DNA of 64,000 bases from Gammaproteobacteria bacterium (lineage in GTDB: Bacteria; Pseudomonadota; Gammaproteobacteria; Steroidobacterales; Steroidobacteraceae): assembly GCA_009926865.1 (NCBI GenBank), contig RFOD01000002.1, positions 28,576 to 92,575 on the forward strand, in the 5' to 3' direction. Positions within the stretch are counted from its first letter, which is position 1. Each line of letters starts with the position of its first letter. The translations under genes were made by a program, and so were the position numbers. The notes under the pieces are model-generated. The model had not been told where the DNA came from, ran no database searches, and saw nothing but the letters and a program-made list of their open reading frames with translations. Shown here in pieces: positions 9,844-64,000 of the stretch.

Positions 9844-11036
9844 TGCGTGGTGCTAGCGATGAGGTGGTCATTGCCTCGACAGCGCGTACCGCGCTAGCCA
9901 AAAGTTGGCGTGGCTCATTCAATATGACGCATGGCGCAACGCTGGGTGCGCATGTGGTGAGAGCGGCCGTAGAGCGAGCGGGAATTGATCCGCAGACCGT
10001 CGAAGATGTGGTGATGGGCTGTGCACTACCCGAGGGCGCGACCGGTAATAACATTGCACGCCAGATCGCGTTGCGTGCCGAGCTACCGGTCACCGTTTCA
10101 GGTATGACGGTTAATCGATTTTGCTCGTCGGGTCTACAGAGTATTGCCCTAGCAGCACAGCGCATACTGGCTGGTGAAGGAGATGTGTATGTAGCCGGTG
10201 GACTTGAGTCGATTTCATGTGTCCAGCTCGAAGTCAATATGCACATGGCTATGGAGTCATGGCTCAAAGAAAAAAAACCCGGTATTTATCATTCAATGTT
10301 GCAAACCGCCGAGACCGTCGCCGAGCGCTACGGGATTTCTCGTGAACGGCAGGACGAATACGGCGCGCGTAGCCAGCAAAGAGCCTGTGCGGCAGATGCA
10401 GCGGGTCATTTCAAAGATGAAATTGTGCCGATTACTGTGCGCATGGCGGGCGTTGATCAATCGGCGGGCGGAAAGCTGTATACCCGCGAAGTGACTGTCT
10501 CGCGCGATGAGGGTTTGCGGGAAGGCACCACGTATGAGGCGGTCGCGCGTATCAAGTCGGCGAGCCCAGGTGGATCCATCGCTGCAGGTAATGCCAGTCA
10601 GTTTTCAGACGGTGCAGGCGCCTGTGTGGTCATGAGTGCGAAGGAAGCGGCGCGTCAAGGCGTCCAACCTCTTGGAATATTCCGAGGGTTTGCGGTGGCA
10701 GGGTGCGAACCCGATGAAATGGGGATTGGACCGGTGTACGCCATTCCGAAGCTCTTACAGCGTACCGGTATCGGTATCGATGATGTGGGTCTGTGGGAGT
10801 TGAATGAAGCATTCGCTGTACAGGTGCTTTATTGTCGAGACCGATTAGGTATTCCTGATGAGCGCTTAAATATCGATGGTGGAGCGATCGCAGTGGGTCA
10901 TCCATACGGGATGAGTGGCCAAAGATTAGTGGGTCACGCCTTGCTAGCTGGCAAACGCCTTGGGGCTAAGCGTGTTGTAACGACGATGTGTATTGGTGGT
11001 GGCATGGGCGCTGCTGCCTTGTTTGAGATCGTGTGA
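9840..11036 (+). CDS. Acetyl-CoA C-acyltransferase (3-ketoacyl-CoA thiolase)
   Basis: Thiolase motifs: active-site Cys in [10 protein letters not shown], and C-terminal [17 protein letters not shown] and CIGGGMGAA. 4-nt overlap with the upstream gene. Confidence 0.95.
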
Positions 11037-11698
11037 CGAGTGCTGCATACCTTGAAGGCGCAAGTCGTGGCCGGGTTTGGCTCGCCGCCATTTATGCCTT
11101 TTTTTTGGTAGCGATAGGGGCTGTTGCCTTGGCAATCGAGATTCCAGACTATCAGGTGATTGAATCGGATCAGGCCTTTGAGGTGCGTGAGTATCCGACT
11201 TATTTGATTGCCGAGACAGAGGTTCAGGCGGGATTTATGGACGCTGGTAATGTCGCCTTTGGCCGACTGTTCCGTTATATCAGCGGTGCTAACGTGAGCC
11301 AGCAACGTATTTCGATGACGGCACCCGTGGAGCAATCGGTGACGGAGGGGGAGCGCATTGTGATGACCGCTCCCGTGGAACAGGTTAAAACCGAAGATAT
11401 GTATCGAGTGGGGTTCATTGTGCCACGGCAGTACACTTTGGAGACGGTGCCGCAACCACTCGACCCTCGCGTCAAGATTCGCCAAGTCAATGCTCGGCGC
11501 GTGGCTGTTTGGCGCTACAGTGGTCGCTGGACGGAGGACAACTTTCGCGAAAATGAGCGGATGCTCAGAGACGCGCTGCGTACACGCGGCATTTCAGTAG
11601 CTCCTACCGCTCCGGCCATCATTGCCCGTTATGACGCGCCATTCATGCCGTGGTTTATGCGTCGTAATGAAGTGCATATTTCTTTGACTGCACAGTAG
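11033..11698 (+). CDS. SOUL/HBP heme-binding-family protein with N-terminal TM anchor
   Basis: Duplicated I/VxMTAPVEQ motif ([18 protein letters not shown]) and overall SOUL-like layout. GTG start overlapping the thiolase stop (GTGA). Confidence 0.7.
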
Positions 11699-11712
11699 CT
11701 GAGGGTTCTATC

Positions 11713-12573
11713 ATGAGCGCAATGGATCGACGACACTTCGTCGCAGGCTCTTTAGCATCCGGTTTTGCTGCGGCTGTTTTGCCCGTGAGTGCGACGACGC
11801 TCACCACTTCGAGCGAGGGTCTTGCGCAGGGTGAGAGTGAAATCCCGGTAGGCGATATCGCTTTACCTGCCTACTGGGCGCGGCCTGAACAGGGCGAGGC
11901 TTGGCCGCTTGTCATCGTGGTACAAGAAATTTTTGGTGTTCACGAGCATATCCGTGACGTATGCCGACGTTTCGCCCGTCGCGGCGTTCTCGCTGTGGCG
12001 CCAGAGCTCTTTGTGCGTCAGGGTGATCCTTCGCAGGTAGGAGATATTAGCCAACTCATGCGGGACATCGTATCGCGCGTCCCAGACGCCCAAGTCATGG
12101 CAGATCTTGATGCCACGATAAGCTGGGCGAGATCGCAGGGGGCGACCGATGCCGTAGCGATTACTGGATTTTGTTGGGGAGGGCGCATCAGCTGGCTCTA
12201 TGCCGCGCACCAACCTGCCATCCGAGCGGCGGTGGCTTGGTATGGGCGATTAACGGGTACGGCGACCGAACTGCAGCCGCAACACCCCGTAGATCTCGCG
12301 GCAGACCTAAAGGCCCCCGTCCTTGGGCTCTATGGCGGGCTCGATCGCGGGATCCCTTTGCAGGATGTTCAGCAAATGCGGCGCGCGCTTGAACAGGAGG
12401 GCGTATCGGTAGCAGCTCGCGCATCACGGTTTGTGGTGTATCCCGAGGCGGGGCATGGCTTCCATGCCGACTATCGCGCTTCCTATCGCGATGTGGATGC
12501 GCGTGCTGCGTTCGCCGAATGTTGTCTGTGGATGCGTGATCACGGCATCGCGCTTGATACGCGAGATGCTTGA
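11713..12573 (+). CDS. Dienelactone hydrolase family protein (Tat-exported)
   Basis: Twin-arginine signal (MDRRHFVAGS). DLH nucleophile elbow with Cys (ITGFCWGG). C-terminal GHGF. Confidence 0.88.
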   Translation: MSAMDRRHFVAGSLASGFAAAVLPVSATTLTTSSEGLAQGESEIPVGDIALPAYWARPEQGEAWPLVIVVQEIFGVHEHIRDVCRRFARRGVLAVAPELFVRQGDPSQVGDISQLMRDIVSRVPDAQVMADLDATISWARSQGATDAVAITGFCWGGRISWLYAAHQPAIRAAVAWYGRLTGTATELQPQHPVDLAADLKAPVLGLYGGLDRGIPLQDVQQMRRALEQEGVSVAARASRFVVYPEAGHGFHADYRASYRDVDARAAFAECCLWMRDHGIALDTRDA

Positions 12574-53862: not shown

Positions 53863-54540
53863 ATGCGCAAGGCTTGTCGAGTCACCATCCTTGCTGCGAC
53901 CGTGTCGCTGGCCGGCTGCATGAGCGCGGTTATCGAAGAGTCGCGTGAGTTGCCAACCCAGATCGCGGCGGGCGAGGCGGTGGTCATTTTGGCCAAACCT
54001 CAAATTGAAGGCGCGGGTGCTGACGACGATTTTATGGATTGTGTTGGCAAAGGTTTGGATCAGGCCTCCGAGAATATCGTCGTGCACGATAACAATCGGT
54101 TTGTGGATGATTTGTTTCCATGGTTTGAGCCGGCGACGGCTCCGGCTCGGCCTGAAGCGGTCACCGAGCTCTTGAACAAACCGGATGTGGGGGAGCGGAT
54201 CGCGGCGTCAGGCGTGCGTTATCTCGTATGGTTGGACGGTGGGACGCGACGGCTCGATGGCGGTGGCAGTCTGGCGTGTGGAGCCGCGCCGGGGGCGGCA
54301 GGTTGTATCGGGTTCGGTTGGTGGGAAAAAGAGACCGACTACGAAGCCACCATATGGGATTTACAGCGCGCGCGAAGCGCCGGTAGCGTCGGAACGAGTG
54401 TCACGGGAACCTCCGCAATTGTCGGCGCGGTGGTGCCCTTGCCGTTTATTGCTCGAGTGGAAGGAACCGCTTGCGATCGACTCGCAGATCAACTGCATAG
54501 CTTTTTCACAGGGGGTGCTTCCGGGGGGTCAGCTCAATGA
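53863..54540 (+). CDS. Lipoprotein, unknown function (first gene of the candidate kinase/FHA/stator locus)
   Basis: Lipobox MRKACRVTILAATVSLAGC from internal ATG 53863. No recognisable domain. Its stop overlaps the next start (ATGA). Confidence 0.6.
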   Translation: MRKACRVTILAATVSLAGCMSAVIEESRELPTQIAAGEAVVILAKPQIEGAGADDDFMDCVGKGLDQASENIVVHDNNRFVDDLFPWFEPATAPARPEAVTELLNKPDVGERIAASGVRYLVWLDGGTRRLDGGGSLACGAAPGAAGCIGFGWWEKETDYEATIWDLQRARSAGSVGTSVTGTSAIVGAVVPLPFIARVEGTACDRLADQLHSFFTGGASGGSAQ

Positions 54541-55373
54541 AGTGGATGTTCGCGGGATGTCTGCTGTTAGCCCTGATCGCCTTGGGCGCTTGTGCATCGC
54601 CGCCGACAGCCGGTGGCGGTGGAGGCGGTGGCGCGCCTAGCGTGCCGACGACGGGTGGCTCCGGTGGCGGTGGCGCAGGAGATATGCCCAGTGTGCCGAC
54701 GACGGGTGGTTCCGGTGGCGGTGGCGCAGGAGAGATGCCTAGTGTGCCGACGACGGGGTCGCCGGCACCCAGCACGGGCAACGGTGACATGGGTAACGAT
54801 GATGAGGCCGGCGGGAGCGATGTGGATGATGCGGCCACCACAGCGGGAGCGGTTGGCTCGACCGATACGGCTGAAGCGTCGGCTGACGCGTCAGCCGAAG
54901 GTGGTATCTCCGAAGAACCTGCTATGACAGCCGATGAGCGAAAGCGAGCGCTCGCTCGAAAATTAGATGAATCTTTAAACGACTTTGACTCGACACTGGA
55001 AGATGAGCAACGGCGTACGGCTGCCGAGCGTGATGCGCGCACGGCGAGTGCTGCCAGTACTCGCGGCGATGAGATCGGAGATGAGGGCCGTGGCAGTGGC
55101 GGCCGGTCTGGCGATCTTCGCTCAGAGCGAGATCGCCGTCAGTCTACGGTTGCCGGAGGCGCGCGCGGCTCGGGCGGCGCTGCGGGCGGCGCTCGAGACC
55201 GCGGCGCCGTAGGCGCGGGCAGTGGGGCGCCAGATCGGGGTATTCCCTCTGGCGATGATGATGACATTGTTGCACGTAGACTGAGGCGAGCAGCCGAGCA
55301 AGAAACAGATCCGGAGCTCAAAGAGAAGCTGTGGCAGGAATACATTGAGTACAAGCGCAATGCACAGGGATGA
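54537..55373 (+). CDS. Lipoprotein, Gly-rich and acidic, predicted disordered, with tandem repeats
   Basis: Lipobox LIALGAC. Poly-Gly tract and PSVPTTGGSGGGGAG[D/E]M repeats. Long acidic/Arg-rich low-complexity region. Conserved-looking C-terminal helix (DDDIVARRLRRAAEQETDPELKEKLWQEYIEYKRN). Confidence 0.6.
   Translation: MKWMFAGCLLLALIALGACASPPTAGGGGGGGAPSVPTTGGSGGGGAGDMPSVPTTGGSGGGGAGEMPSVPTTGSPAPSTGNGDMGNDDEAGGSDVDDAATTAGAVGSTDTAEASADASAEGGISEEPAMTADERKRALARKLDESLNDFDSTLEDEQRRTAAERDARTASAASTRGDEIGDEGRGSGGRSGDLRSERDRRQSTVAGGARGSGGAAGGARDRGAVGAGSGAPDRGIPSGDDDDIVARRLRRAAEQETDPELKEKLWQEYIEYKRNAQG
54636..54758 (+). repeat. 51-bp in-frame tandem repeat, about 2.4 copies
   Basis: Copies at 54636..54686 and 54687..54737, with a partial copy to about 54758. 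Each full copy encodes PSVPTTGGSGGGGAG(D/E)M. The copies differ at a few mostly synonymous positions. Confidence 0.85.
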
Positions 55374-56652
55374 TGCCATCAAAAATTTTCTCGGGATTCA
55401 TCAAGAAGAGCTGAGTGCCAGCGTGTCTAAACTGACGCTTTTGGCGCTTGGTTTTCTGATCCTGACGGGTTGTGTGGTGAATGAGGTTCGGCCACAACCG
55501 AAGCTACAGGCGGTACAAGCGACGCAGATGATTGCGCAAGCCGAGCTGCTTGATGTTGCGGTCGTTGATTTTGATTCGGGAGTACCGAAAGCCTTACTCG
55601 ACGATGAGCAAGAGCTTGAAAAAAGACGGATTTATCCCGAGGTTAGGCGCGCCGAGTCTCGTCTACTTGCGGTAAGACTCAAAGAAACCTTAGAAAACAC
55701 GGGCCAATGGGGCGCGGTTCGGGTTGTGCCGCCAAGTGTCAATTATGTGGACGTCGTGGTGACTGGGCGGATCATCGAATCAACAGGCTCGGAGCTCGCC
55801 TTGCGAGTATCGGCACGTGATGCGTCGGGGCGAGTTTGGATTGACGACAAGCCCTATCAGGCCGACGCAGATTTGGGTTCCTATAAAACCGAAGCTGCCC
55901 TCAAGGCCCGCGATCCTTTTCAAAATATTTATGTACAGATTGCCGACGATTTACTGGCGGCGCGTCAGCAGTTAAGTGCTACGCAGCGACGCGAGGTTCG
56001 CCAGATCGCAGAATTACGTTTCGCAGGGGATTTAGATCCTGCTTCGTTTTCAGGCTACATACAGGCGAGCGAAGGTGGTCAGTGGTCTCTCGTGCGTTTG
56101 CCAGCAGCAGATGATCCAGCCTTGCTAAGAATTCGAGCTATTCGAGAGCGAGATGCCAGTGTCATCGATACCTTGGATGGCTATAACCAAGAGTTTTCGG
56201 ATCAGTTGTTTGAGTCTTATGGGTCATTTCGTCGTACTAGTCGCGAAGCGATTGAGAAGGCGGATAAGGCTCGAAATCAGGCGATGACCCGTACAGTATT
56301 GGGTGCAGCCGCTGTCTTGGGTAGTATTTTTGTGGGGAGTAATTGCTCGTCCATGGATTACAACTGCCGGCGTATAGACGATGCGGTACGGACTGCTGGG
56401 GTGATTGGTGGGACGGCGGCCGTTATGTCCGGTATAAAAAAATTCTCTGATGCCAAAATTGCGGCACAAGAAGTGCGTGAGTTAGCTGATAGTTTTGAGG
56501 CAGAGGTTGCCGGGCAGGTGGTGGAAGTCGAAGGGCGAACACTCAAATTGACGGGTACTGCTGAAGAGCAATACCGAGAGTGGCGTCGATTGCTGGCGGC
56601 GATCTATCGAGAAGAAACGTTGCCCGAGTCCGCTGCAACGCCAGCACCGTAG
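55345..56652 (+). CDS. Lipoprotein/membrane protein, unknown function
   Basis: Lipobox LGFLILTGC. The N-terminal domain has VAVVDFDSG, which looks LpoB/CsgG-like (inference). The C-terminal region has Gly-rich hydrophobic segments (VLGAAAVLGSIFVG, GVIGGTAAVMSG). Overlaps the upstream gene. Confidence 0.55.
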   Translation: MSTSAMHRDDAIKNFLGIHQEELSASVSKLTLLALGFLILTGCVVNEVRPQPKLQAVQATQMIAQAELLDVAVVDFDSGVPKALLDDEQELEKRRIYPEVRRAESRLLAVRLKETLENTGQWGAVRVVPPSVNYVDVVVTGRIIESTGSELALRVSARDASGRVWIDDKPYQADADLGSYKTEAALKARDPFQNIYVQIADDLLAARQQLSATQRREVRQIAELRFAGDLDPASFSGYIQASEGGQWSLVRLPAADDPALLRIRAIRERDASVIDTLDGYNQEFSDQLFESYGSFRRTSREAIEKADKARNQAMTRTVLGAAAVLGSIFVGSNCSSMDYNCRRIDDAVRTAGVIGGTAAVMSGIKKFSDAKIAAQEVRELADSFEAEVAGQVVEVEGRTLKLTGTAEEQYREWRRLLAAIYREETLPESAATPAP

Positions 56653-56669: not shown

Positions 56670-59009
56670 ATGGAGTTTTCCTTGTTCGAGAAGGGGCAAA
56701 GACTCTGCGACCGCTTCGTGTTGCTCGAAATACTTTACGCCGCAGACGACTGGTCGATTTGGCAGGCGCTGGATGAGCAGCGCTCCGTCCAGGTGGCCAT
56801 TAAATGCATCGTCCGTGATAACCCGCGAGCCGATGAACAATGGAGACTGATGCTTCGGCAATATGCCGTACGTTTACGACTCGATCACGAGCGAGTGCTG
56901 AGGATTGACGAGCCAGTTCGTGATCATGAAGTTTGTGTACTACCAATGCAGCTGGCCGCAGGCAACGCGAGTCGCTTACGAGGCAAGGCTTGGCGCCAAT
57001 GGCGTGCGGTTGCCATTGATGTGGCGCGTGCCCTAGCGCATTTGCATCAGCGTGGTTGGGTACACGGCGATCTCAAGTCAAGCAATGTCTTACTGGACTT
57101 CCGTGGCGATGCGTTGCTCGCAGATTTCGAATCGACCACCGCTTGTGGCGAGGTAGCGCCGCTTAGCGGCTCTCCATTCAGCGCAAGTCCCGCTCGCCTA
57201 CGCGAACAGCCAGTCAGCATTGCAGACGACCTTTACGGATTCGGTGCATTGCTGCATGAATGGATGACCGGTTACCCCCCGTATTTTCCTGAGCGACCGG
57301 ATCCGAGTCAGTTCCCGTCATTGCCTCCGTTACATTGCGTTCATCCGACTCCCGAGCATTTGAAATCTTTGGTCATACGTTTGTTGGCTTCTGAGCCAAG
57401 CGCTCGACCTTCAAATATGGCTGAAGTGCTTGAATGCTTGGAATGCGATGAGAGCGGTACAGTAAGCCCTGTACTCAGTGCTGACTCCGACGTATTCGAC
57501 ATATCACAGGTTATCGCCGTCACGCCAAATCGTGATGAGGCGCGAGTCGCTGAGCTCGCGGGCGACTCCAGAAAAAGTCGGCGGTGGATTGGTGTCGGTG
57601 TCGTCGCCGGGTTGCTGCTCGGCGGTCTTTGGTGGGTTTTGCCTCAATTGACGCAACAGCAAAGCGCACAGCTGACAAAAGCTTTGTCTGCTGCGCGCGA
57701 AGCGGCTGGGCTTGATGATGCTACGACCTCATCGAGTGTAGTGTCGGACTCCGCAGAGGGCGCCGGCGCGACCCTCGCGCCATCGGTACGTTACGCCACG
57801 CTCGAGGATGCTTATCTCGCTAAGCTCGAAGAGCTTGAGCGGCGTGCAGCCGGCGTCTGGGGTGGTGAAGTATTTGCCAGTGGTAAATCTTTGGGTCGCT
57901 TAGCCAAGGAAGCGGCCGATGACCGAGATTGGGAGATTGCTCTTGATCGGATTGCCGTAGCCACTCGTCGACTCGAGCGTGTCGAAGTTGACATCCCAGT
58001 AATTAAGGCCACTCGATTGCAAGATGCTGTGGCAGCGCTAGATCTTGGGCAGCTTGAGCTGGCGAGACAAAACTTTGATCTGGTGCGCCAAATTGAGCCT
58101 ACCGATTCTCAAGCGCTCGAGGGTCTGGAGCGTGTCTCAGCGCTCGCTGCTGTCTTGCCCGTGCTCGCCCAGGCGGAGTCGGCACTACTGGCAGGGCAAG
58201 CGCTACAGGCCTTAACTTTATTTGAGCAAGTTTTGCGGGTCGATGCCGGTAATCGTCGTGCTAAAGATGGCTTGCAGCAAGCGAGTTTAAGCTTAGGTAA
58301 CGATCAATTTGGTCAAGCGATTGGTGAAGCGCTCGCCGAATTGCGGGCGGGTGATTTTCCGGCCGTTGAATCGGCATTACAACGCGCAGCCGCGCTACGC
58401 CCCTTAGCGCCGGAGCTCGCAGCCGTACGCGCGCAGTTATCGGCGGGGGTTGAAAGGCGCGCCCTGGAGGGTGAGCGCGAGCGTATTCTCGCGCTCGAGC
58501 AGGCTGAACGCTGGGGTGAGGCTTTGCGTCGCTACGAGCAGGTCTTGGCGCAAGATCCCAGTTTGGTATTTGCACGTACGGGTCGGGAGCGCGTGGCTTC
58601 GCGAGCCCTTGTCGAGCAAAGATTTAATGCCTTGATCGGTGAGCCTGCTCGTTTGGTTTCCCCCGATGTGCGCAGAGAAGCGCAGCGACTCATTGCTCAA
58701 TCAGACGTATGGCTCAAAAAGGGCGGTGCGCCTGTGCTGGAGCGTCAACGTGCGGCTTTAGAGACAGAGTTAGAGCGCTTTGCGCAGCGAATTAGAACCG
58801 TCATTGAGTCAGATGGAATGACAGAAGTGCGCATCCAAAGGGTAGGTTCGCTCGGCGTCTTTGAACGCAGAGAACTTGAGTTACAACCTGGGCGTTATGT
58901 GGCGATTGGTACTCGGGCGGGGTTTCGTGATGTCCGTCTAGAGTTTTCTCTGATGCCGGGCGAGTCTACGCCCGTGATTGATGTTAGATGCTCGGAGTCG
59001 GTGACGTGA
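56670..59009 (+). CDS. Hanks-type Ser/Thr protein kinase (atypical motifs), one TM helix, periplasmic TPR-like region
   Basis: ATG 56670 preceded by GGAG. VAIK Lys (VQVAIKCI), catalytic loop VHGDLKSSNVLLD, DFE in place of DFG (LLADFEST), and DLYGFGALLHEWMTGYPPY. TM helix WIGVGVVAGLLLGGLWWVL. Repetitive helical Ala/Leu-rich region. C-terminal beta-domain (PGRYVAIGTRAGFRDVRLEF). Confidence 0.85.
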   Translation: MEFSLFEKGQRLCDRFVLLEILYAADDWSIWQALDEQRSVQVAIKCIVRDNPRADEQWRLMLRQYAVRLRLDHERVLRIDEPVRDHEVCVLPMQLAAGNASRLRGKAWRQWRAVAIDVARALAHLHQRGWVHGDLKSSNVLLDFRGDALLADFESTTACGEVAPLSGSPFSASPARLREQPVSIADDLYGFGALLHEWMTGYPPYFPERPDPSQFPSLPPLHCVHPTPEHLKSLVIRLLASEPSARPSNMAEVLECLECDESGTVSPVLSADSDVFDISQVIAVTPNRDEARVAELAGDSRKSRRWIGVGVVAGLLLGGLWWVLPQLTQQQSAQLTKALSAAREAAGLDDATTSSSVVSDSAEGAGATLAPSVRYATLEDAYLAKLEELERRAAGVWGGEVFASGKSLGRLAKEAADDRDWEIALDRIAVATRRLERVEVDIPVIKATRLQDAVAALDLGQLELARQNFDLVRQIEPTDSQALEGLERVSALAAVLPVLAQAESALLAGQALQALTLFEQVLRVDAGNRRAKDGLQQASLSLGNDQFGQAIGEALAELRAGDFPAVESALQRAAALRPLAPELAAVRAQLSAGVERRALEGERERILALEQAERWGEALRRYEQVLAQDPSLVFARTGRERVASRALVEQRFNALIGEPARLVSPDVRREAQRLIAQSDVWLKKGGAPVLERQRAALETELERFAQRIRTVIESDGMTEVRIQRVGSLGVFERRELELQPGRYVAIGTRAGFRDVRLEFSLMPGESTPVIDVRCSESVT

Positions 59010-61423
59010 CTCGCGACCAGATTTTTATCTTTGAGCCGATGGGTGATAGGGCGCTATCGGCGCCGATCCGTGTGGGGTCTGCAACGGACTGTGATGTACG
59101 CATTCCGGATGATGAGACAGATCGGGAATTAATCATTGATAGAGATTCTGAGGGGTGGTTCATTCTGATCACCGCCGATGGTGCAAATCTAAACGGCGTG
59201 CCGTTACAGAGGGACTGGCGTTATCAGTTGCAGACCGAGGATGTGTTACGGATCGGTGATGCAGTACTACGAGTTCGTCTACTCGAGACGGATTTGGAAT
59301 TGCTTATTGATCATCCAGAGGGTAACGCGACCTTGGCGCCTTCAGCGCCCGTTTCTTTGCTTCAATACGATGAGCAAGCCGAGGAGCGTATTTCCGCTGC
59401 GCCGCGTGAGTTTTCTAAATCAATACCCTCAGACGATACAGGTTATCGAGTCAATCGGAAATTTGTTTGGGGGTCTTTGTTCGGCCTGGTTGCCATCTTG
59501 TTACTGGTTGTTACGATTTTGGGGCGCTTGCAGCCAGTGACGTTCGTAGTCGATCCAACGACAGCTTCGGTGGGGGGCTCGGGCTTAGGCTGGACATCTG
59601 GCAATACGCTATTTTTGATGCCAGGTGAGCGGACAATTCTTGCGTCTGCAAAGGGTTATTCATCGCTCCAACAACGGGTGTCGATCAAGCCAGATGAGCC
59701 CATGAGTTTACAGCTGCGGTTGGAGCCCCTACCCGGGATTGTGGAAGTCGATACCGCGGGTGTCGCAGCTGAAGTCTTTGTGGACGGCGCGCGCACAGGT
59801 AAAGTGCCTGGAGACTTGGAAATACTGCAAGGCATGAGAACGCTGACCATTCGAGCAGATAAATATTTTGACGAAATTCGGCAGTTGGAAGTTGAGGGGT
59901 TTGGGGTGCGTCAAGTTATCTCGGTACCCCTTCGTCCATCCTGGGGAACCGTGCAAGTGCAGACCGACCGTGCGGCGGCGACTCTGATCATTGAGGGGCA
60001 GGACCCCATCCCATTACCCGCTGAAGTGCAATTGCCGGCTGGGCTTCATCGATTGGAAGTGGCGGCACCCGAAGCGAAGTCTTGGCGTGGAGCGGTTTTG
60101 GTGGAAGCGGGAGTCGTTCAAACAATCGGCCCGTTATCTTTGGGGGAGCCAGATGCGATCTGGCAAATAAGCTCTCGCCCATCGGGCGCGTCGGTCACTG
60201 TCAACGGTGTATTTCGCGGTCGGACGCCTCTGGAGGTCACGCTCACACCTCAGATGGAGCATCAGATTACGGTGGGTGAGCAAGGATATTCACAAGTTGA
60301 GCGGCGGGTTCGACCGATGCCGGCCGAACGTCAAACTTTGCAACTTAACCTAGACGTACGTCGAGTGACATTGACGGTTGAGGGTGAGCCCATCGGAGCA
60401 GAGATTTTCTTGGCAGGACGTAAGTTGGGGGTTTCGCCGCTGGAGGTGGAACTGCCGGCGCGCCGAGCACAGTTGAGTATTCGCCAGCAGGGCTTTACCG
60501 AACAGTCCTTAAGCGTGGATTTGTCGTCAGGCGTTGCGCGACAAGTGACCTATCGGCTTGTACCTGAGGGGCGATCAGCTGATTGGCAGCCCCCCGCGCC
60601 ACAGGTGAGCTTAGTTCAGGGGCCGGTGCTGCGTTTGATACAAGGGGGTAGTTTTACGATGGGTAGCGCTCGACGCGAGCAGGGACGTCGCTCAAATGAG
60701 TGGCAACGGCGCGTCACGCTGCAGCGGCCCTTTTATATGGGGACGCGAGAAATAAGTAACGGCGAGTTTCGTCGTTTTCGTGCAGATCACGCATCGGGGT
60801 TCATTGGTAAACGCAGCCTCGATCTGGATTCGCAGTCGGTGACGGGTATTAGCTGGGAGGATGCAGTCGAATACTGCAATTGGTTATCGGCGCAAAACGG
60901 GCTCACACCCGCATACACTAAAAAGGAGGGTCGTTGGACTTTGGTGCAACCCGTTAACACAGGTTTCCGGTTACCCACTGAGGCGGAATGGGAATTTGTC
61001 ACTCGAGTTGAACCGGACGCCGCGCCAGTTCGTCGCTATCCCTGGGGCATGCAATTGCCGCCACCTATCGCAACGGCGAATCTTGCGGGCGAGGAGGCTG
61101 CAGCCGATTTATCGAGGACCCTCTCAGGATGGCGTGATGAGTATGTTGTGGTGGCGCCCAGCGCACAGCATCCGGCTAACACGAGAGGTTTGTACGATTT
61201 ATTAGGTAACGTGTCAGAGTGGGTGCATGACGCGTACGCAACGGTGCCTGAAGGGGAGCCCTTGGATCCGATCGGGCCGACCATAGACACTCGCTTACGA
61301 GTGATCAAAGGAGCTAATTGGCGAACGAGTCAATTTGCCGACTTACGTGCGGCGTGGCGGGACGGGCGCGATCGCCCCGCTGATGACGTGGGGTTTCGTA
61401 TTGCGCGCTATGCAGAAGAGTGA
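58988..61423 (+). CDS. FHA-like domain, TM helix, multiple PEGA domains and FGE/SUMF1 (formylglycine-generating-enzyme-like) domain fusion protein
   Basis: N-terminal FHA-like segment (PIRVGSATDCDVRIPDD ... VLRIGDAVLRV). TM helix FVWGSLFGLVAILLLVVTILG. PEGA-like repeats (AAEVFVDGARTGKVPGDL, ASVTVNGVFRGRTPLEV, GAEIFLAGRKLGVSPLEV). FGE-sulfatase motifs (GGSFTMGS, ISWEDAVEYCNWLS, RLPTEAEWEF, GNVSEWVHD, VGFRIARY). An alternative GTG start at 59006 gives a GTGA overlap with the kinase stop. Confidence 0.85.
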   Translation: MLGVGDVTRDQIFIFEPMGDRALSAPIRVGSATDCDVRIPDDETDRELIIDRDSEGWFILITADGANLNGVPLQRDWRYQLQTEDVLRIGDAVLRVRLLETDLELLIDHPEGNATLAPSAPVSLLQYDEQAEERISAAPREFSKSIPSDDTGYRVNRKFVWGSLFGLVAILLLVVTILGRLQPVTFVVDPTTASVGGSGLGWTSGNTLFLMPGERTILASAKGYSSLQQRVSIKPDEPMSLQLRLEPLPGIVEVDTAGVAAEVFVDGARTGKVPGDLEILQGMRTLTIRADKYFDEIRQLEVEGFGVRQVISVPLRPSWGTVQVQTDRAAATLIIEGQDPIPLPAEVQLPAGLHRLEVAAPEAKSWRGAVLVEAGVVQTIGPLSLGEPDAIWQISSRPSGASVTVNGVFRGRTPLEVTLTPQMEHQITVGEQGYSQVERRVRPMPAERQTLQLNLDVRRVTLTVEGEPIGAEIFLAGRKLGVSPLEVELPARRAQLSIRQQGFTEQSLSVDLSSGVARQVTYRLVPEGRSADWQPPAPQVSLVQGPVLRLIQGGSFTMGSARREQGRRSNEWQRRVTLQRPFYMGTREISNGEFRRFRADHASGFIGKRSLDLDSQSVTGISWEDAVEYCNWLSAQNGLTPAYTKKEGRWTLVQPVNTGFRLPTEAEWEFVTRVEPDAAPVRRYPWGMQLPPPIATANLAGEEAAADLSRTLSGWRDEYVVVAPSAQHPANTRGLYDLLGNVSEWVHDAYATVPEGEPLDPIGPTIDTRLRVIKGANWRTSQFADLRAAWRDGRDRPADDVGFRIARYAEE

Positions 61424-61701
61424 GTTCTGACGTGTCTACCCTAAAAGCCAGTAGTCGTCTGTCGCAAGCCACGGGTTGGCGCATGATTGTCGCGACTGCG
61501 TTGACGGCAATCATTTGTTGGCTCGTGGTACTTGTGATGTTGCGCGGTGTCGTCGCGCAGAATGCGGAGCCCGTTGGGACCGAGACCAACGAAGAAGAGG
61601 TGGTGTCGCGCCGTGTTTTGCCGCAGACAGAGCGAGAGGCGGACGCACCTGAATTTCGTGAGTCGGCGGATAACAATATTAGCTTTCCGGTGGATATATG
61701 A
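61420..61701 (+). CDS. Small single-pass membrane protein
   Basis: 93-aa ORF with TM helix WRMIVATALTAIICWLVVLVML. Overlaps both neighbouring genes by 4 nt (GTGA and ATGA). Confidence 0.5.
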   Translation: MSSDVSTLKASSRLSQATGWRMIVATALTAIICWLVVLVMLRGVVAQNAEPVGTETNEEEVVSRRVLPQTEREADAPEFRESADNNISFPVDI

Positions 61702-62495
61702 AAAAGTTGCCCAGCGAATTCGTCTTTATTGTGGCGGCATTATTGATTGCCGCCGTATTTGTGCACTCGGTCTACATTTTGCACATACGGCCTGTTGCTG
61801 AAATGACGCTCAAAATTGACCGCGAGCGTATGGCGGAGGACCCTGAGTACGTCGCAGACCGTTCCATATATGTGGTTATCAAAGATTATGAGCAGCAGGC
61901 CACGATTACGCTGATGTTATGGGCCTTGGCCATTATGGCCTTCAAGGCGATACAGCAACGCCGGGAAGCGGAGGTACTGGAGTCGGAATTGCTACGCTTG
62001 CCAGACGGCGTCAAGATTTTGCCCGAAGACACTCGGGAATACATGCGTCAGGTCGAGTCATTACCGATCGATACTCGAGGCTTATTGGTGCCGCGTGCAT
62101 TGCTTGGGGCACTGGCGAGATTTGGTGCTACGCGTAATGTTCAAGACGCTTCAACAGTAGCGCACGGGATCTGTCAGTCAGAGGCGGAACGTCTAGATTC
62201 TGATTTGGCATTGTTGCGGTATATCGCTTGGGCGATTCCCGCGATTGGTTTCATTGGTACGGTACGCGGCATTGGCGATGCGCTATCCCAGGCGCATAAA
62301 GCCGTCACGGGCGATATCTCTGGTGTGACCGAGGGCTTAGGCGTTGCGTTCAATTCGACCTTAATTGCGCTATTGTTATCAATTCTTCTGATGTTTTTGA
62401 TGCAACAGCTGCAGCAAGCTCAGGAGCGTCGAGTGCTCGATACCGAGACGTGGCTCGATCAAAAAGTCATCCGTAATCTGCAAGCGCGTGGCTAA
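61698..62495 (+). CDS. MotA/TolQ/ExbB-family proton-channel protein
   Basis: Three TM helices. PF01618-type signature: LRYIAWAIPAIGFIGTVRGIGDAL ... GVTEGLGVAFNSTLIALLLSILLMFL. Confidence 0.85.
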   Translation: MKKLPSEFVFIVAALLIAAVFVHSVYILHIRPVAEMTLKIDRERMAEDPEYVADRSIYVVIKDYEQQATITLMLWALAIMAFKAIQQRREAEVLESELLRLPDGVKILPEDTREYMRQVESLPIDTRGLLVPRALLGALARFGATRNVQDASTVAHGICQSEAERLDSDLALLRYIAWAIPAIGFIGTVRGIGDALSQAHKAVTGDISGVTEGLGVAFNSTLIALLLSILLMFLMQQLQQAQERRVLDTETWLDQKVIRNLQARG

Positions 62496-63712
62496 TGATT
62501 GGCGGTTTTCTCAATGAGCAGCAACTGATTCTGTCTGCAGCGGACGGATCACAGACCCTGCGTGCGGAGTTGGATGCGGGTCTTGATCAACGAGGTTTGC
62601 AGATCGCCAAGCAATGGCATAGCGCAGGCTTTCCCGACGCTCAGTTTTCTTTGGCAACGACCGCTCACGAGACCCCCGACCGATTGGCGGAGCTACTATC
62701 TACTCTGGATCGTGAAGGCTTGTCACTTACAGCGTTCATGGACTCGGCCGCATTGGTGGCGGGTGCGGTGGGTTTTAAAGGGGTAGGACTCGTCCTGCAA
62801 TTCCTACGTCATAGTGCATTAGTGACTCGCATTGTAGAGACGGAGGGTCGGTATCGTCGTGCCGCATTTTCCGTCGGAGAGGGTTGCGGACTGATAGATA
62901 TCCGTCGCGCCTGTCTGCAGTGCATTGCAGATCGTATGATTCGGCAAAGCCGTTTCGATCCACTGCACGATGTAAAAGACGAGGAGTATCTGGCGACCCA
63001 TTTGCTTGATTGGCTAAAGCAGGCGATGGAAGAAGGTTCTGTCACCATCAGCATGACGGCGCTCGGTAAGTCAATCGAACTGACGATCAGCTTGGGTGAG
63101 TTCATCAATGCAACAGAGCCTATCTTCAAAAAAATCCGAACTTTGGTGCTGGACACTCGACTACCTGGGACACGCGACTATCTACTCCTCCCTGACTGGC
63201 TAGGCCACACGCCAGGCGCTCGCGAGTATGTCGCGGCGCTGTCCGGATCAGCAGCTTATCTATTTGATGAATCGATCATTGCGCGTGCGGCTGCGCGCTG
63301 TGTACTTCCACCACGCGAGGATGACGCGGTCACGTTATATCGGCAGGTCGAGTTAGCGCCCTTTGCTGAAAGGGAAATCAAGTCGTTTAACGCTGAATCC
63401 AGTGAGTATCGCGCGCCGACTCACCTTCTTTATGGAAGTCGCGTTTGGCAGCTGATGACGTCGATGCGAGTGGGTCGAGGCGCTGACTGCACGGTGGTAT
63501 TGCCTCAAGGTGTAGCAGGCATATCACGTGATCATTGTACGTTGACAAGGCTGGACGACGAATGGGTGCTGATTGATCACAGTCGTTATGGTACGTGGAT
63601 CAATGATGAACGAGTCCGTGGTCGGCAGCGACTGGCGGCAGGAGATCGAGTGCGCGTGGGTGATCTAGGTGTTGAGCTGAATCTGATCACTGTGAGTGAC
63701 AATGATGGCTAA
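62495..63712 (+). CDS. Cytoplasmic protein with unknown ~300-aa N-terminal domain and canonical C-terminal FHA domain
   Basis: FHA signature: VGRGADCTVVLPQGVAGISRDHCTLTRLDDEWVLIDHSRYGTWINDERV ... GDRVRVGD. No TM segment. Start abuts the ExbB-like stop. Confidence 0.8.
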   Translation: MIGGFLNEQQLILSAADGSQTLRAELDAGLDQRGLQIAKQWHSAGFPDAQFSLATTAHETPDRLAELLSTLDREGLSLTAFMDSAALVAGAVGFKGVGLVLQFLRHSALVTRIVETEGRYRRAAFSVGEGCGLIDIRRACLQCIADRMIRQSRFDPLHDVKDEEYLATHLLDWLKQAMEEGSVTISMTALGKSIELTISLGEFINATEPIFKKIRTLVLDTRLPGTRDYLLLPDWLGHTPGAREYVAALSGSAAYLFDESIIARAAARCVLPPREDDAVTLYRQVELAPFAEREIKSFNAESSEYRAPTHLLYGSRVWQLMTSMRVGRGADCTVVLPQGVAGISRDHCTLTRLDDEWVLIDHSRYGTWINDERVRGRQRLAAGDRVRVGDLGVELNLITVSDNDG

Positions 63713-64000
63713 GCGCCGGGTTGAGGTTTTCAGTCTGTCGTTTTTGGATGTGATCTGCTGCGGATTTGGCGCCGTCATTCTTTTCTACACCATCATCAGC
63801 GCGCAAAGCGGTGTTGAGCGTACGCGGCAGGCGGAGGATCTGGCAGCACAGGTCTCGCTACTGGAAGAAGAAGTGCTACGCGGTGCCAAGAATCTAGTTC
63901 TACTACGAAATACACTCGAGAAAACTGAATCCGAGACAGTGTCCGCAGCATCGCGCGCTACCCAACTCATCGAAGCGTTGCAGCGACGACGAGAGGAGGC
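63705..64000 (+). CDS. Partial ORF: ExbD/TolR-like Asp-containing TM helix followed by a coiled coil (runs off the window)
   Basis: Not in the ORF track because it has no stop. ATG at 63705 overlaps the upstream stop. My translation: MAKRRVEVFSLSFLDVICCGFGAVILFYTIISAQSGVERTRQAEDLAAQVSLLEEEVLRGAKNLVLLRNTLEKTESE... The FLDV-plus-hydrophobic-helix segment resembles the ExbD (PFIDVMLVLLIIF) and TolR (PLLDVLLVLLLIF) TM regions. Confidence 0.55.
   Translation, partial: MAKRRVEVFSLSFLDVICCGFGAVILFYTIISAQSGVERTRQAEDLAAQVSLLEEEVLRGAKNLVLLRNTLEKTESETVSAASRATQLIEALQRRREE

Follow-up and report, generated by a model that had tools for sequence, protein, structure and literature searches.

A TolQ-like protein, an Hsp70-like/FHA protein and two helix-anchored vWA paralogs in a conserved gene cluster of uncultured bacteria: a predicted non-canonical module of the 5:2 motor type

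Here we describe a cluster of 11 genes that lies in a 64-kb stretch of DNA from a Steroidobacteraceae bacterium (hereafter the window, meaning the whole stretch) and in the sequence that continues it to the right. At its core are a gene for a TolQ/ExbB-type membrane protein (A), a gene for an Hsp70-like/FHA protein and two paralogous genes (B1 and B2) for helix-anchored vWA proteins, accompanied by genes for a Ser/Thr kinase, an FHA-PEGA-FGE protein, a small single-pass protein and four predicted lipoproteins (Table 1). Ion-driven 5:2 motors, namely MotAB, ExbBD, TolQR, GldLM and ZorAB, form a small set of machines that pass energy from the inner membrane on to the other layers of the envelope. 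A first-pass annotation of the window had proposed that A and a coiled-coil open reading frame (ORF) one gene further downstream make up a non-canonical motor of this kind, and the ORFs that it placed between positions 61420 and 64000 were recovered there from the ORF and Pfam analyses. The right end of the window cuts B1 after 98 of its 364 codons. The 405-residue protein encoded next to it is identical on 20 public contigs, in which the last 500 bases of the window are also exactly present, and the sequence past the window end was taken from the public contig L001. A search for the A family in contigs of one genome per species yielded at least 580 places, the best 80 of which were analyzed further as loci inspected with flanks of 10 kb. 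Synteny counts refer to the 70 loci with both A and B1 or, for the upstream genes, to the 53 loci with a complete upstream flank, and the orthologue sets comprised 80 A, 70 B1 and 65 B2 sequences. These best 80 loci belong to Steroidobacteraceae/Acidibacter (the lineage of the window, with locus L007 at 99%), Nevskiaceae, Woeseiaceae and Pseudomonadales, and also to Acidobacteriota, a 'Deltaproteobacteria' metagenome-assembled genome (MAG), a Rhodospirillaceae MAG and an Isosphaeraceae MAG (Planctomycetota); all the loci listed come from MAGs of uncultured organisms. Monomer models of A and of the Hsp70-like/FHA protein made with AlphaFold2 (AF2) were searched by Foldseek, and domains were sought in Pfam, NCBIfam and PADLOC.

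Table 1. Genes of the cluster, with the core genes given before their neighbors; positions are those of the window unless the contig L001 is named.
Feature	Position	Strand	Length (residues)	Characteristics and basis
A subunit, TolQ/ExbB-fold proton-channel protein	61698..62495	+	265	PF01618, AF2/Foldseek, invariant Thr
Hsp70-like/FHA protein, cytoplasmic	62495..63712	+	405	Hsp70 nucleotide-binding-domain-like (actin-fold) domain at ~1-300, FHA at 325-389; Pfam, AF2/Foldseek
B1, 5' part	63705..64000	+	98 of 364 codons	Basic N-terminus, transmembrane helix, coiled coil, vWA; runs ~800 nt past the window
B2, paralogue of B1	L001 12336-13391		351	Same build as B1; 30 bases after B1
Small single-pass or signal-anchored protein	61432..61701	+	89 (93 from GTG at 61420)	One hydrophobic helix
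Bitopic FHA-PEGA-FGE protein	58988..61423	+		Weak cytoplasmic FHA, transmembrane helix, periplasmic PEGA, FGE-sulfatase fold; Pfam
Bitopic Ser/Thr kinase	56670..59009	+		N-terminal cytoplasmic kinase, one transmembrane helix, TPR-like periplasmic part; Pkinase E 4.3e-21
u430, predicted lipoprotein	55360..56652	+	430	Lipobox LTGC; in 52/53 loci with full upstream flank
u261, predicted lipoprotein	54537..55373	+	278 in the window	Lipobox LGAC; Gly-rich repeat linker
u225, predicted lipoprotein	53863..54540	+	225	Lipobox LAGC; identical to the L001 gene
lipo249, predicted lipoprotein	L001 13370-14119		249	After B2

The A protein matches PF01618 (MotA_ExbB) over residues 159-249 (E 3.4e-14; score 53.1 bits, cut-off 22.9) and contains the segments GFIGTVRGIG and GVAFNSTLIAL. 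Its scores in the NCBIfam tolQ and exbB equivalog models were weak and below cut-off (27.7 against 221 bits), and because these cut-offs are far from being reached we regard A as the member of a separate TolQ-like family rather than as TolQ or ExbB proper. The AF2 model of the monomer, with a predicted local distance difference test score (pLDDT) of 84.7, retrieved TolQ chains first (from E. coli and Acinetobacter; 9ddm_E, E 3.7e-4, TM-score 0.70 by target) and then ExbB; the top 34 PDB matches were all TolQ or ExbB chains (TM-score at most 0.71 by target, probability 1.00), and MotA, PomA and ZorA ranked lower (8vvn_D at rank 47). Compared with TolQ and ExbB, an extra hydrophobic helix was found at residues 67-85. 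In pairwise alignments T188 and T221 of A fall on T145/T178 of TolQ and T148/T181 of ExbB, and both were invariant in all 80 orthologues, in a protein whose identity throughout the loci ranges between 53 and 83%. The threonines of this pair are established to line the lumen of the TolQ and ExbB pentamers around the Asp of the B subunit (PMC12204202). The first-pass reading of this gene as that of an A-type protein is thus borne out by the Pfam score, the fold and the Thr pair. Two further segments of A, RFGATRNVQD (residues 141-150; T145 in 78/80 orthologues) and LPEDTREY (residues 108-115; T112 in 67/80), are near-invariant across phyla, have no counterpart in the TolQ alignment and are both cytoplasmic, the former being placed by the model in a loop at the cytoplasmic end, between helices 130-145 and 148-204. 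At a guess, they are candidate docking or phosphorylation sites.

The complete B1 protein (L001 11211-12305) has 364 residues and ends in a vWA domain (Pfam VWA_2, E 5.5e-07; VWA_3, E 2.2e-06). The single B-type ORF of the first-pass annotation is real, but it is only one of two paralogous genes, each of them with a vWA head that carries a metal-ion-dependent adhesion site (MIDAS). B1 opens with MAKRRVEVFSLSFLDVICCGFGAVILF and shares its first 8 nt with the gene before it, and its N-terminal stretch MAKRRVEVFSLSFLDVICCGFGAVILFYTII gives way to charged, heptad-like sequence; B2, which begins MRLKRRDAESFSLSFLDVICCGFGAIILLL, is 25% identical to B1 (E 2e-14). Both chains have a basic N-terminus and a single transmembrane helix, SFLDVICCGFGA in B1, and by the positive-inside rule the N-terminus would lie in the cytoplasm. 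The helix holds an Asp in an S-F-L-D context (D15 in B1, D17 in B2), which the first-pass annotation had likened to that of ExbD/TolR and whose conservation proved complete among the orthologues of B1 (70/70) and of B2 (65/65). In the same two sets the C and the two G of the helix motif CGFGA were invariant and its A nearly so. Over its first 14 residues the helix reads almost alike in B1 and B2 across phyla, and its second half differs consistently, being LFYTII or LFFMII in B1 and LLLVLT in B2. Examination of 130 helices listed revealed no His and no SHLS motif. Every B1 and B2 orthologue carries the MIDAS motif DxSxS, whose distance from the helix Asp hardly varies (a median of 156 residues in B1, with a range of 149-157, and of 143 residues in B2). 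The spacer is a coiled coil of about 115 residues whose heptad periodicity was matched by only 7/500 and 1/500 shuffles, so that the expectation of a heptad-like charged sequence without an ExbD periplasmic fold holds for the full-length chain as well, which continues from coiled coil to vWA. In architecture, in position and in local motif (SFLDVI against PLLDVL/PFIDVM) the B helix resembles that of ExbD/TolR, a likeness of architecture and motif only. Co-variation between the B1 and B2 helices was too confounded by phylogeny to serve as evidence of contact.

The B1 family is large. Searching 1.84 billion cluster representatives by phmmer with the 98-residue fragment gave 857 matches at E<=1e-3, and the top 150 belong to the same family of about 364 residues or are pieces of it. 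An alternative C-terminal domain was not found among these top matches, and two longer members (485 and 492 residues) carry no extra Pfam domain. Ten distant members are MAG-derived proteins named 'VWA domain-containing protein' or 'hypothetical', none of them from a named cultured species, and the labels of B1 relatives in the databases also include a few stray automatic ones (Lpp, DivIVA, anti-sigma-28 factor).

The order A, intervening Hsp70-like gene, B1, B2 was kept in 70/70 loci, which come from several phyla, and B1 and B2 co-occur in 69/70. Overlapping stop and start codons link the small protein, A, the Hsp70-like/FHA protein and B1, with ATGA between the small protein and A, where the first-pass annotation had already noted the coupling, and TAATG between A and the Hsp70-like/FHA gene. 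Genes of the ExbD/TolR family directly adjoin their A gene; B1, unlike these, is separated from A by one gene in 70/70 loci. Using E. coli TolQ, TolR, ExbB, ExbD, MotA and MotB as queries in phmmer, we detected no relative of TolR, ExbD or MotB in the window or in the 80 loci, with the exception of one ORF, and a canonical ExbD or TolR gene is thus missing from the neighborhood. The exceptional ORF (locus L064, 14437-15216, Woeseiaceae) lies directly after B2 and has a weak MotB match (E 6e-4), probably to its OmpA-like part. An Asp that never varies (70/70 B1 and 65/65 B2 proteins) and a gene order kept in 70/70 loci show that this pattern is not one of chance. The fold of A, its threonines, the Asp of the B chains and the synteny all agree with the core idea of the first-pass annotation, that of an A-type subunit with a non-ExbD, Asp-helix coiled-coil partner encoded one gene away.

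The gene that separates A from B1 had been described as encoding a soluble FHA protein. The FHA domain is certain (PF00498, E 5.7e-16; score 59.1 bits, cut-off 20.7), with S344, H347 and N370 invariant and R345 present in at least 90% of 26 sequences; conservation among the orthologues does not extend to the Arg of the upstream GR pair. The description omitted, however, the larger part of the protein, a domain with the fold of the Hsp70 nucleotide-binding domain (NBD). The best Foldseek matches of its AF2 model (pLDDT 86.9) were the NBDs of Hsp110, DnaK and Hsp70 (E 3e-13), with TM-scores of about 0.55-0.60 to isolated NBDs. A profile search gave only weak matches to Hsp70 chains (E ~0.09), and Pfam HSP70 was not matched by the 405-residue protein. 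A motif RFDPLH is conserved in the Hsp70-like part. A gene of this kind stands between A and B1 in 70/70 loci, and in 69/70 of them it encodes an FHA domain; the remaining one, in the planctomycete locus (L086 1025-2059, the Isosphaeraceae MAG), encodes 344 residues that are Hsp70-like, with RFDPLH, and no FHA. Because of this gene without FHA, we consider the actin-fold part to be the constant element and the FHA domain a near-universal addition. The Hsp70-like/FHA protein diverges much faster than its neighbors, with 87% identity to the L007 copy (10798-12015) against 98-99% for A, B1 and B2, and a median identity of 29% across the 80 loci. The copy of the window's lineage is about 45 residues shorter at its N-terminus than most orthologues (405 against ~445-456 residues).

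A recent study (PMC12204202; Mol Biol Evol 2025) has tied two vWA families to TolQ-like motors. The first is TolA-like, has an SHLS motif and lies next to tolQ and tolR-like genes. The second, called TPH-vWA after its TolR/ExbD-like trans-pore helix (TPH), has a conserved Asp in this helix and no SHLS motif, and occurs predominantly as heterologous pairs; the study takes Idiomarina loihiensis as its reference and gives the range as Proteobacteria and Verrucomicrobia (PMC12204202). The AlphaFold 3 (AF3) models of that study present a TolQ-like pentamer with paired TPH-vWA proteins whose two Asp residues lie inside a ring of conserved Thr (PMC12204202). The cluster described here is alike in its tolQ-like gene without syntenic tolR, exbD or motB, in its helix-tethered vWA domain, in the Asp within a helix devoid of SHLS and His and in its heterologous pairs, and it differs in its taxonomic range, the loci being found in Steroidobacteraceae, Woeseiaceae and Pseudomonadales MAGs, Acidobacteriota and Planctomycetota, in a comparison made with the published description of the Idiomarina family. 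Since all the TPH-vWA features that could be examined here are present (PMC12204202), the idea of the motor is not new. The accessible portions of the text, legends and supplements of that paper contain no mention of an Hsp70-like/FHA gene, a kinase, an FHA-PEGA-FGE protein, a small protein with a C-terminal motif, lipoproteins or an occurrence in Acidobacteriota. In the accessible literature on ExbB/TolQ, vWA, FHA, PEGA, kinases and Hsp70 we found no description of this cluster; it is not covered by a paper on vWA conflict systems (eLife 2020), and a survey of MotAB (mBio 2025) does not mention vWA or FHA. The module is, as judged from its predicted proteins, a real, widespread and non-canonical one of the 5:2 motor type, with a core that was predicted computationally in 2025, and the regulatory and envelope context in which the cluster places it appears to be undescribed.

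Taking the results from the fold comparisons, the residue conservation and the synteny, we infer that A, B1 and B2 form one proton-driven 5:2 complex of the inner membrane (A5:B1:B2), with an output through an axle that is also an arm and with control by phosphorylation, a reading to which we assign a probability of roughly 0.62. In such a complex the helices of B1 and B2 would occupy the lumen of a TolQ-like pentamer, with D15 of B1 and D17 of B2 facing the T188/T221 ring of A much as D23 of TolR faces T145/T178 of TolQ. Each B chain would extend from the membrane by its coiled coil of about 115 residues, some 17 nm if fully helical, and so may span much of the periplasm. As neither an ExbD/TolR periplasmic domain nor a TolA/TonB arm separate from the B chains is encoded in the cluster, we propose that the B1/B2 heterodimer would serve at once as the axle and as the force-transmitting arm. 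Rotation of this axle would be conveyed to the vWA/MIDAS heads, which may grip a partner in the periplasm or the outer membrane; this partner could be the PEGA-FGE protein, any of the four lipoproteins of the cluster or the small protein, the last by way of its acidic C-terminal ...SFPVDI sequence. On the cytoplasmic side, the protein with the Hsp70-NBD fold is probably a fixed partner of the motor. Because the cluster encodes two FHA proteins and an ever-present transmembrane Ser/Thr kinase, a signal from the periplasm probably acts by way of Thr phosphorylation to switch the motor, in its assembly or its activity, a form of control suggested by the linkage of kinase and FHA domains.

Several results weigh against this interpretation. 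Neither PF02472 (ExbD/TolR) nor a MotB family of Pfam was matched at E<=10 by full-length B1 or B2 or by 50 helix fragments, a profile of the B helix run against PDB sequences at the same threshold returned no ExbD, TolR or MotB chain but only a chance match to NDUFB4, and hhalign of this profile with E. coli TolR and ExbD aligned only 8 columns (SLSFLDVI with IVPLLDVL, Asp on Asp) at a probability of 5%. Because the Pfam, PDB profile and hhalign searches were all negative, we claim no homology between the B helix and that of ExbD/TolR, and the verb chosen in the first-pass annotation, that the N-terminus of B1 'mimics' the Asp helix, was apt, the Asp being invariant and homology undetectable. 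The carrier genomes surely encode canonical TolQR and ExbBD pairs elsewhere, and A may pair with a canonical B protein encoded outside the 20-kb loci that were viewed. The contact between A and the B chains would follow from analogy with TolQ/ExbB complexes, and no phospho-acceptor site was identified. In the window protein, the Gly-rich phosphate loops (GGG) of the Hsp70-like domain are not recognizable by eye, FLNE and LQF standing where the orthologues have LNDAG and HLDL; because of this the domain may be a scaffold rather than an ATPase. Finally, no deletion phenotypes are reported for the related vWA transducers of the SHLS type (PMC12204202).

The negative searches for ExbD, TolR or MotB relatives of the B helix would also fit a module that does not rotate, in which the TolQ-like protein only conducts protons or ions or acts as a scaffold, B1 and B2 are anchored vWA adaptors resembling BatA/BatB and the helix Asp serves another purpose, for example oligomerization or metal binding. 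Single-helix-anchored vWA proteins are common, and for every member of the module complex formation and rotation are a matter of inference. We nonetheless consider a non-rotary module unlikely, given that the Thr pair invariant in A is the one that rings the B-subunit Asp in TolQ/ExbB, that the buried Asp and the small-residue face CGFGA are kept across phyla in both paralogs, that the 80 loci with their flanks hold no other B-type gene to take the place of B1 and B2, and that the AF3 models of the analogous family put the helices in the pore (PMC12204202). In their build the B chains, which lead from a transmembrane helix over a long helical spacer to a globular head, recall TolA too, and the description of TolA-like transducers that bear an SHLS motif and a vWA head (PMC12204202) lends some sense to the view that B1 and B2 are TolA/TonB-like transducers at the periphery of the pentamer, the true axle being a canonical TolR/ExbD encoded elsewhere. 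Yet the B helices have the invariant Asp instead of His or SHLS, and no tolR or exbD lies within 10 kb in the 80 loci, whereas the SHLS-type vWA genes adjoin tolQ and tolR-like genes (PMC12204202); a peripheral position of B1 and B2 is accordingly improbable.

An anti-phage defense system of the Zorya type, with A and the B chains as a MotA-like/B-like sensor and the kinase as the signaling or effector arm, might be suspected from the PADLOC match of A to ZorA (best E 2.5e-05) and from generic matches of the kinase to the PD-T4-6, mad6 and MkoA models. The ZorA match is, however, limited to the core shared by MotA and ExbB (residues 164-252), and six other cluster proteins that were scanned, B1 and B2 among them, gave no PADLOC match. 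Nor did these proteins show a nuclease or other effector domain, a long ZorA tail or a peptidoglycan-binding domain of the ZorB kind. The same order of 11 genes across phyla, at the identity of A given above, the presence of four lipoproteins and two bitopic periplasmic proteins and the lack of plasmid copies of B1 (tblastn, 72,556 plasmids) likewise speak against defense, which we consider very improbable and have rejected because its support is confined to the weak match to the ZorA core and the generic kinase matches. The A5:B1:B2 motor hence remains the reading that we prefer, and the motor interpretation of the first-pass annotation is largely supported.

Of the genes upstream of A, those for the kinase and the FHA-PEGA-FGE protein occur in all of the 53 loci whose upstream flank is complete. 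The kinase, whose transmembrane helix lies at residues 306-324 (of the 779-residue form), has the motifs VAIK, HGDLKxxN and DFE readable in its sequence; it shows HGD instead of HRD (non-RD) and DFE instead of DFG, and it retains the VAIK lysine together with the two catalytic aspartates. In the FHA-PEGA-FGE protein, the FGE-sulfatase (E 3.7e-40) and PEGA (E 1.3e-35, in 3 stretches) domains were clear and the transmembrane helix falls at residues 160-178, and the FHA (E 0.0054) and Yop-YscD_cpl (E 1.1e-4) matches were both below cut-off. In NCBIfam the FGE domain (residues ~550-807) came closest to the gliding and type IX secretion lipoproteins GldK/PorK (E 5.5e-26; score 91.8 bits, cut-off 350) and GldJ, in each case well short of the family cut-off. 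The small protein consists of an N-terminal hydrophobic helix, an acidic or Pro-rich linker and the C-terminus ...ADNNISFPVDI-COOH. A motif scan found a short ORF ending in FxP[ST]Ex3ADxx[IV]SFP[VI]DI-stop just before A in 66/78 loci of several phyla, where BLAST detected it in only 17 loci, and the small protein is a real member of the system. It is our speculation that its acidic C-terminal peptide may be a ligand of the vWA/MIDAS heads.

The lipoproteins matched no known family. No family match was found for u225 (Pfam, NCBIfam, PDB) or for u261 and u430 (Pfam, NCBIfam, PDB profile), and profiles of all four lipoproteins, lipo249 included, gave nothing interpretable against PDB sequences and nothing in Pfam or NCBIfam. 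The C-terminal helical part of u261 is conserved (DDDIVARQLREAA...DPELREKLW) and the gene was present in 49/53 loci with a full upstream flank; its product has 278 residues in the window and 261 in the near-identical L001 (2094-2879), the copy number of the repeat PSVPTTGGSGGGGAG being different. The u225 gene, an accessory one in the cluster, was found in 42 loci, always adjoining lipo249, either downstream of B2 or upstream and inverted: the pair follows B2 in L036, L045, L049, L052, L063, L071 and L073 and is upstream and inverted in L058, L069, L079, L081 and L082. Neither gene was detected in the Acidobacteriota loci.

Placing these genes beside the known envelope motors reveals partial likenesses to each of them. 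With the E. coli TolQ-TolR(-TolA) and ExbB-ExbD(-TonB) systems the cluster shares the fold of A, for which they are the best structural match, and the conserved pore Thr pair, as well as the basic N-terminus of TolR/ExbD and the single helix with an Asp some 15-25 residues from the start. It differs from them in having no ExbD/TolR periplasmic domain and no separate TolA/TonB, in its two unlike B chains, in that B is not next to A and in the coiled-coil arm with a vWA head. The Agl-Glt machinery of Myxococcus (AglR-AglQ-AglS) likewise combines one TolQ-like A protein with two different TolR-like B proteins, AglQ and AglS being its pair of B proteins. Both of these, however, are ordinary TolR-type proteins, and the vWA domain sits on a separate outer-membrane lipoprotein and not on the axle. 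To the extent that the accessible descriptions of Agl-Glt cover it, that system is also envelope-spanning and has lipoproteins, TPR and FHA-containing parts and the vWA adhesin CglB; AglRS has been counted among the non-flagellar relatives (PMC12505986). No Glt homologue was detected by NCBIfam in the cluster proteins, bar a sub-threshold match to the FHA of GltG (E 0.1).

In the GldL-GldM/GldK-GldN system of type IX secretion and gliding, the B-type subunit is, as predicted here, a long periplasmic arm that reaches an outer partner, and an FGE-fold protein is part of the system, GldK/PorK being the best NCBIfam match of the FGE domain described above. GldL and GldM themselves were unmatched by the cluster proteins in NCBIfam; the A protein here has the TolQ fold, and the FGE protein, with its cytoplasmic FHA domain, is bitopic in the inner membrane rather than a lipoprotein. 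The ZorA-ZorB pair of Zorya shares the non-flagellar 5:2 core of the MotA/ExbB type, to which the weak ZorA match of A testifies, and differs in that the ZorA cytoplasmic tail, the ZorB peptidoglycan-binding domain and ZorC/D/E have no counterpart here, the coiled coil being on the B chains and predicted to be periplasmic.

Whether the 11 genes as a whole build a single machine is a broader question than that of the A5:B1:B2 core. We suggest, tentatively and with less confidence than we have in the core, that they could encode an undescribed trans-envelope machine made of a 5:2 motor, a B1/B2 axle that is also its arm, a permanently bound actin-fold subunit and a periplasm-sensing kinase that would switch the motor on or off through the two FHA proteins. 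The locus and the at least 580 related ones support the computational proposal of 2025 that a TolQ-like pentamer can be fitted with a completely different axle, which here would be made of two unlike chains, would also be the force-transmitting arm and would bear integrin-type vWA heads. The element that our analysis adds is the fixed company kept by this motor, consisting of an actin-fold/FHA protein in the motor operon, a transmembrane Ser/Thr kinase, an FHA-PEGA-FGE protein, a small protein and four lipoproteins. If the link to phosphorylation is true, the cluster would offer a tractable 5:2 motor under the control of a eukaryote-like kinase, together with a complete candidate machine, and no 5:2 ion motor before it would have been gated through phosphorylated Thr. 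In such a scenario its output would be delivered at the outer membrane or the cell surface, for example in adhesion, gliding, lipoprotein display or envelope remodeling, in abundant uncultured bacteria of soils and sediments.

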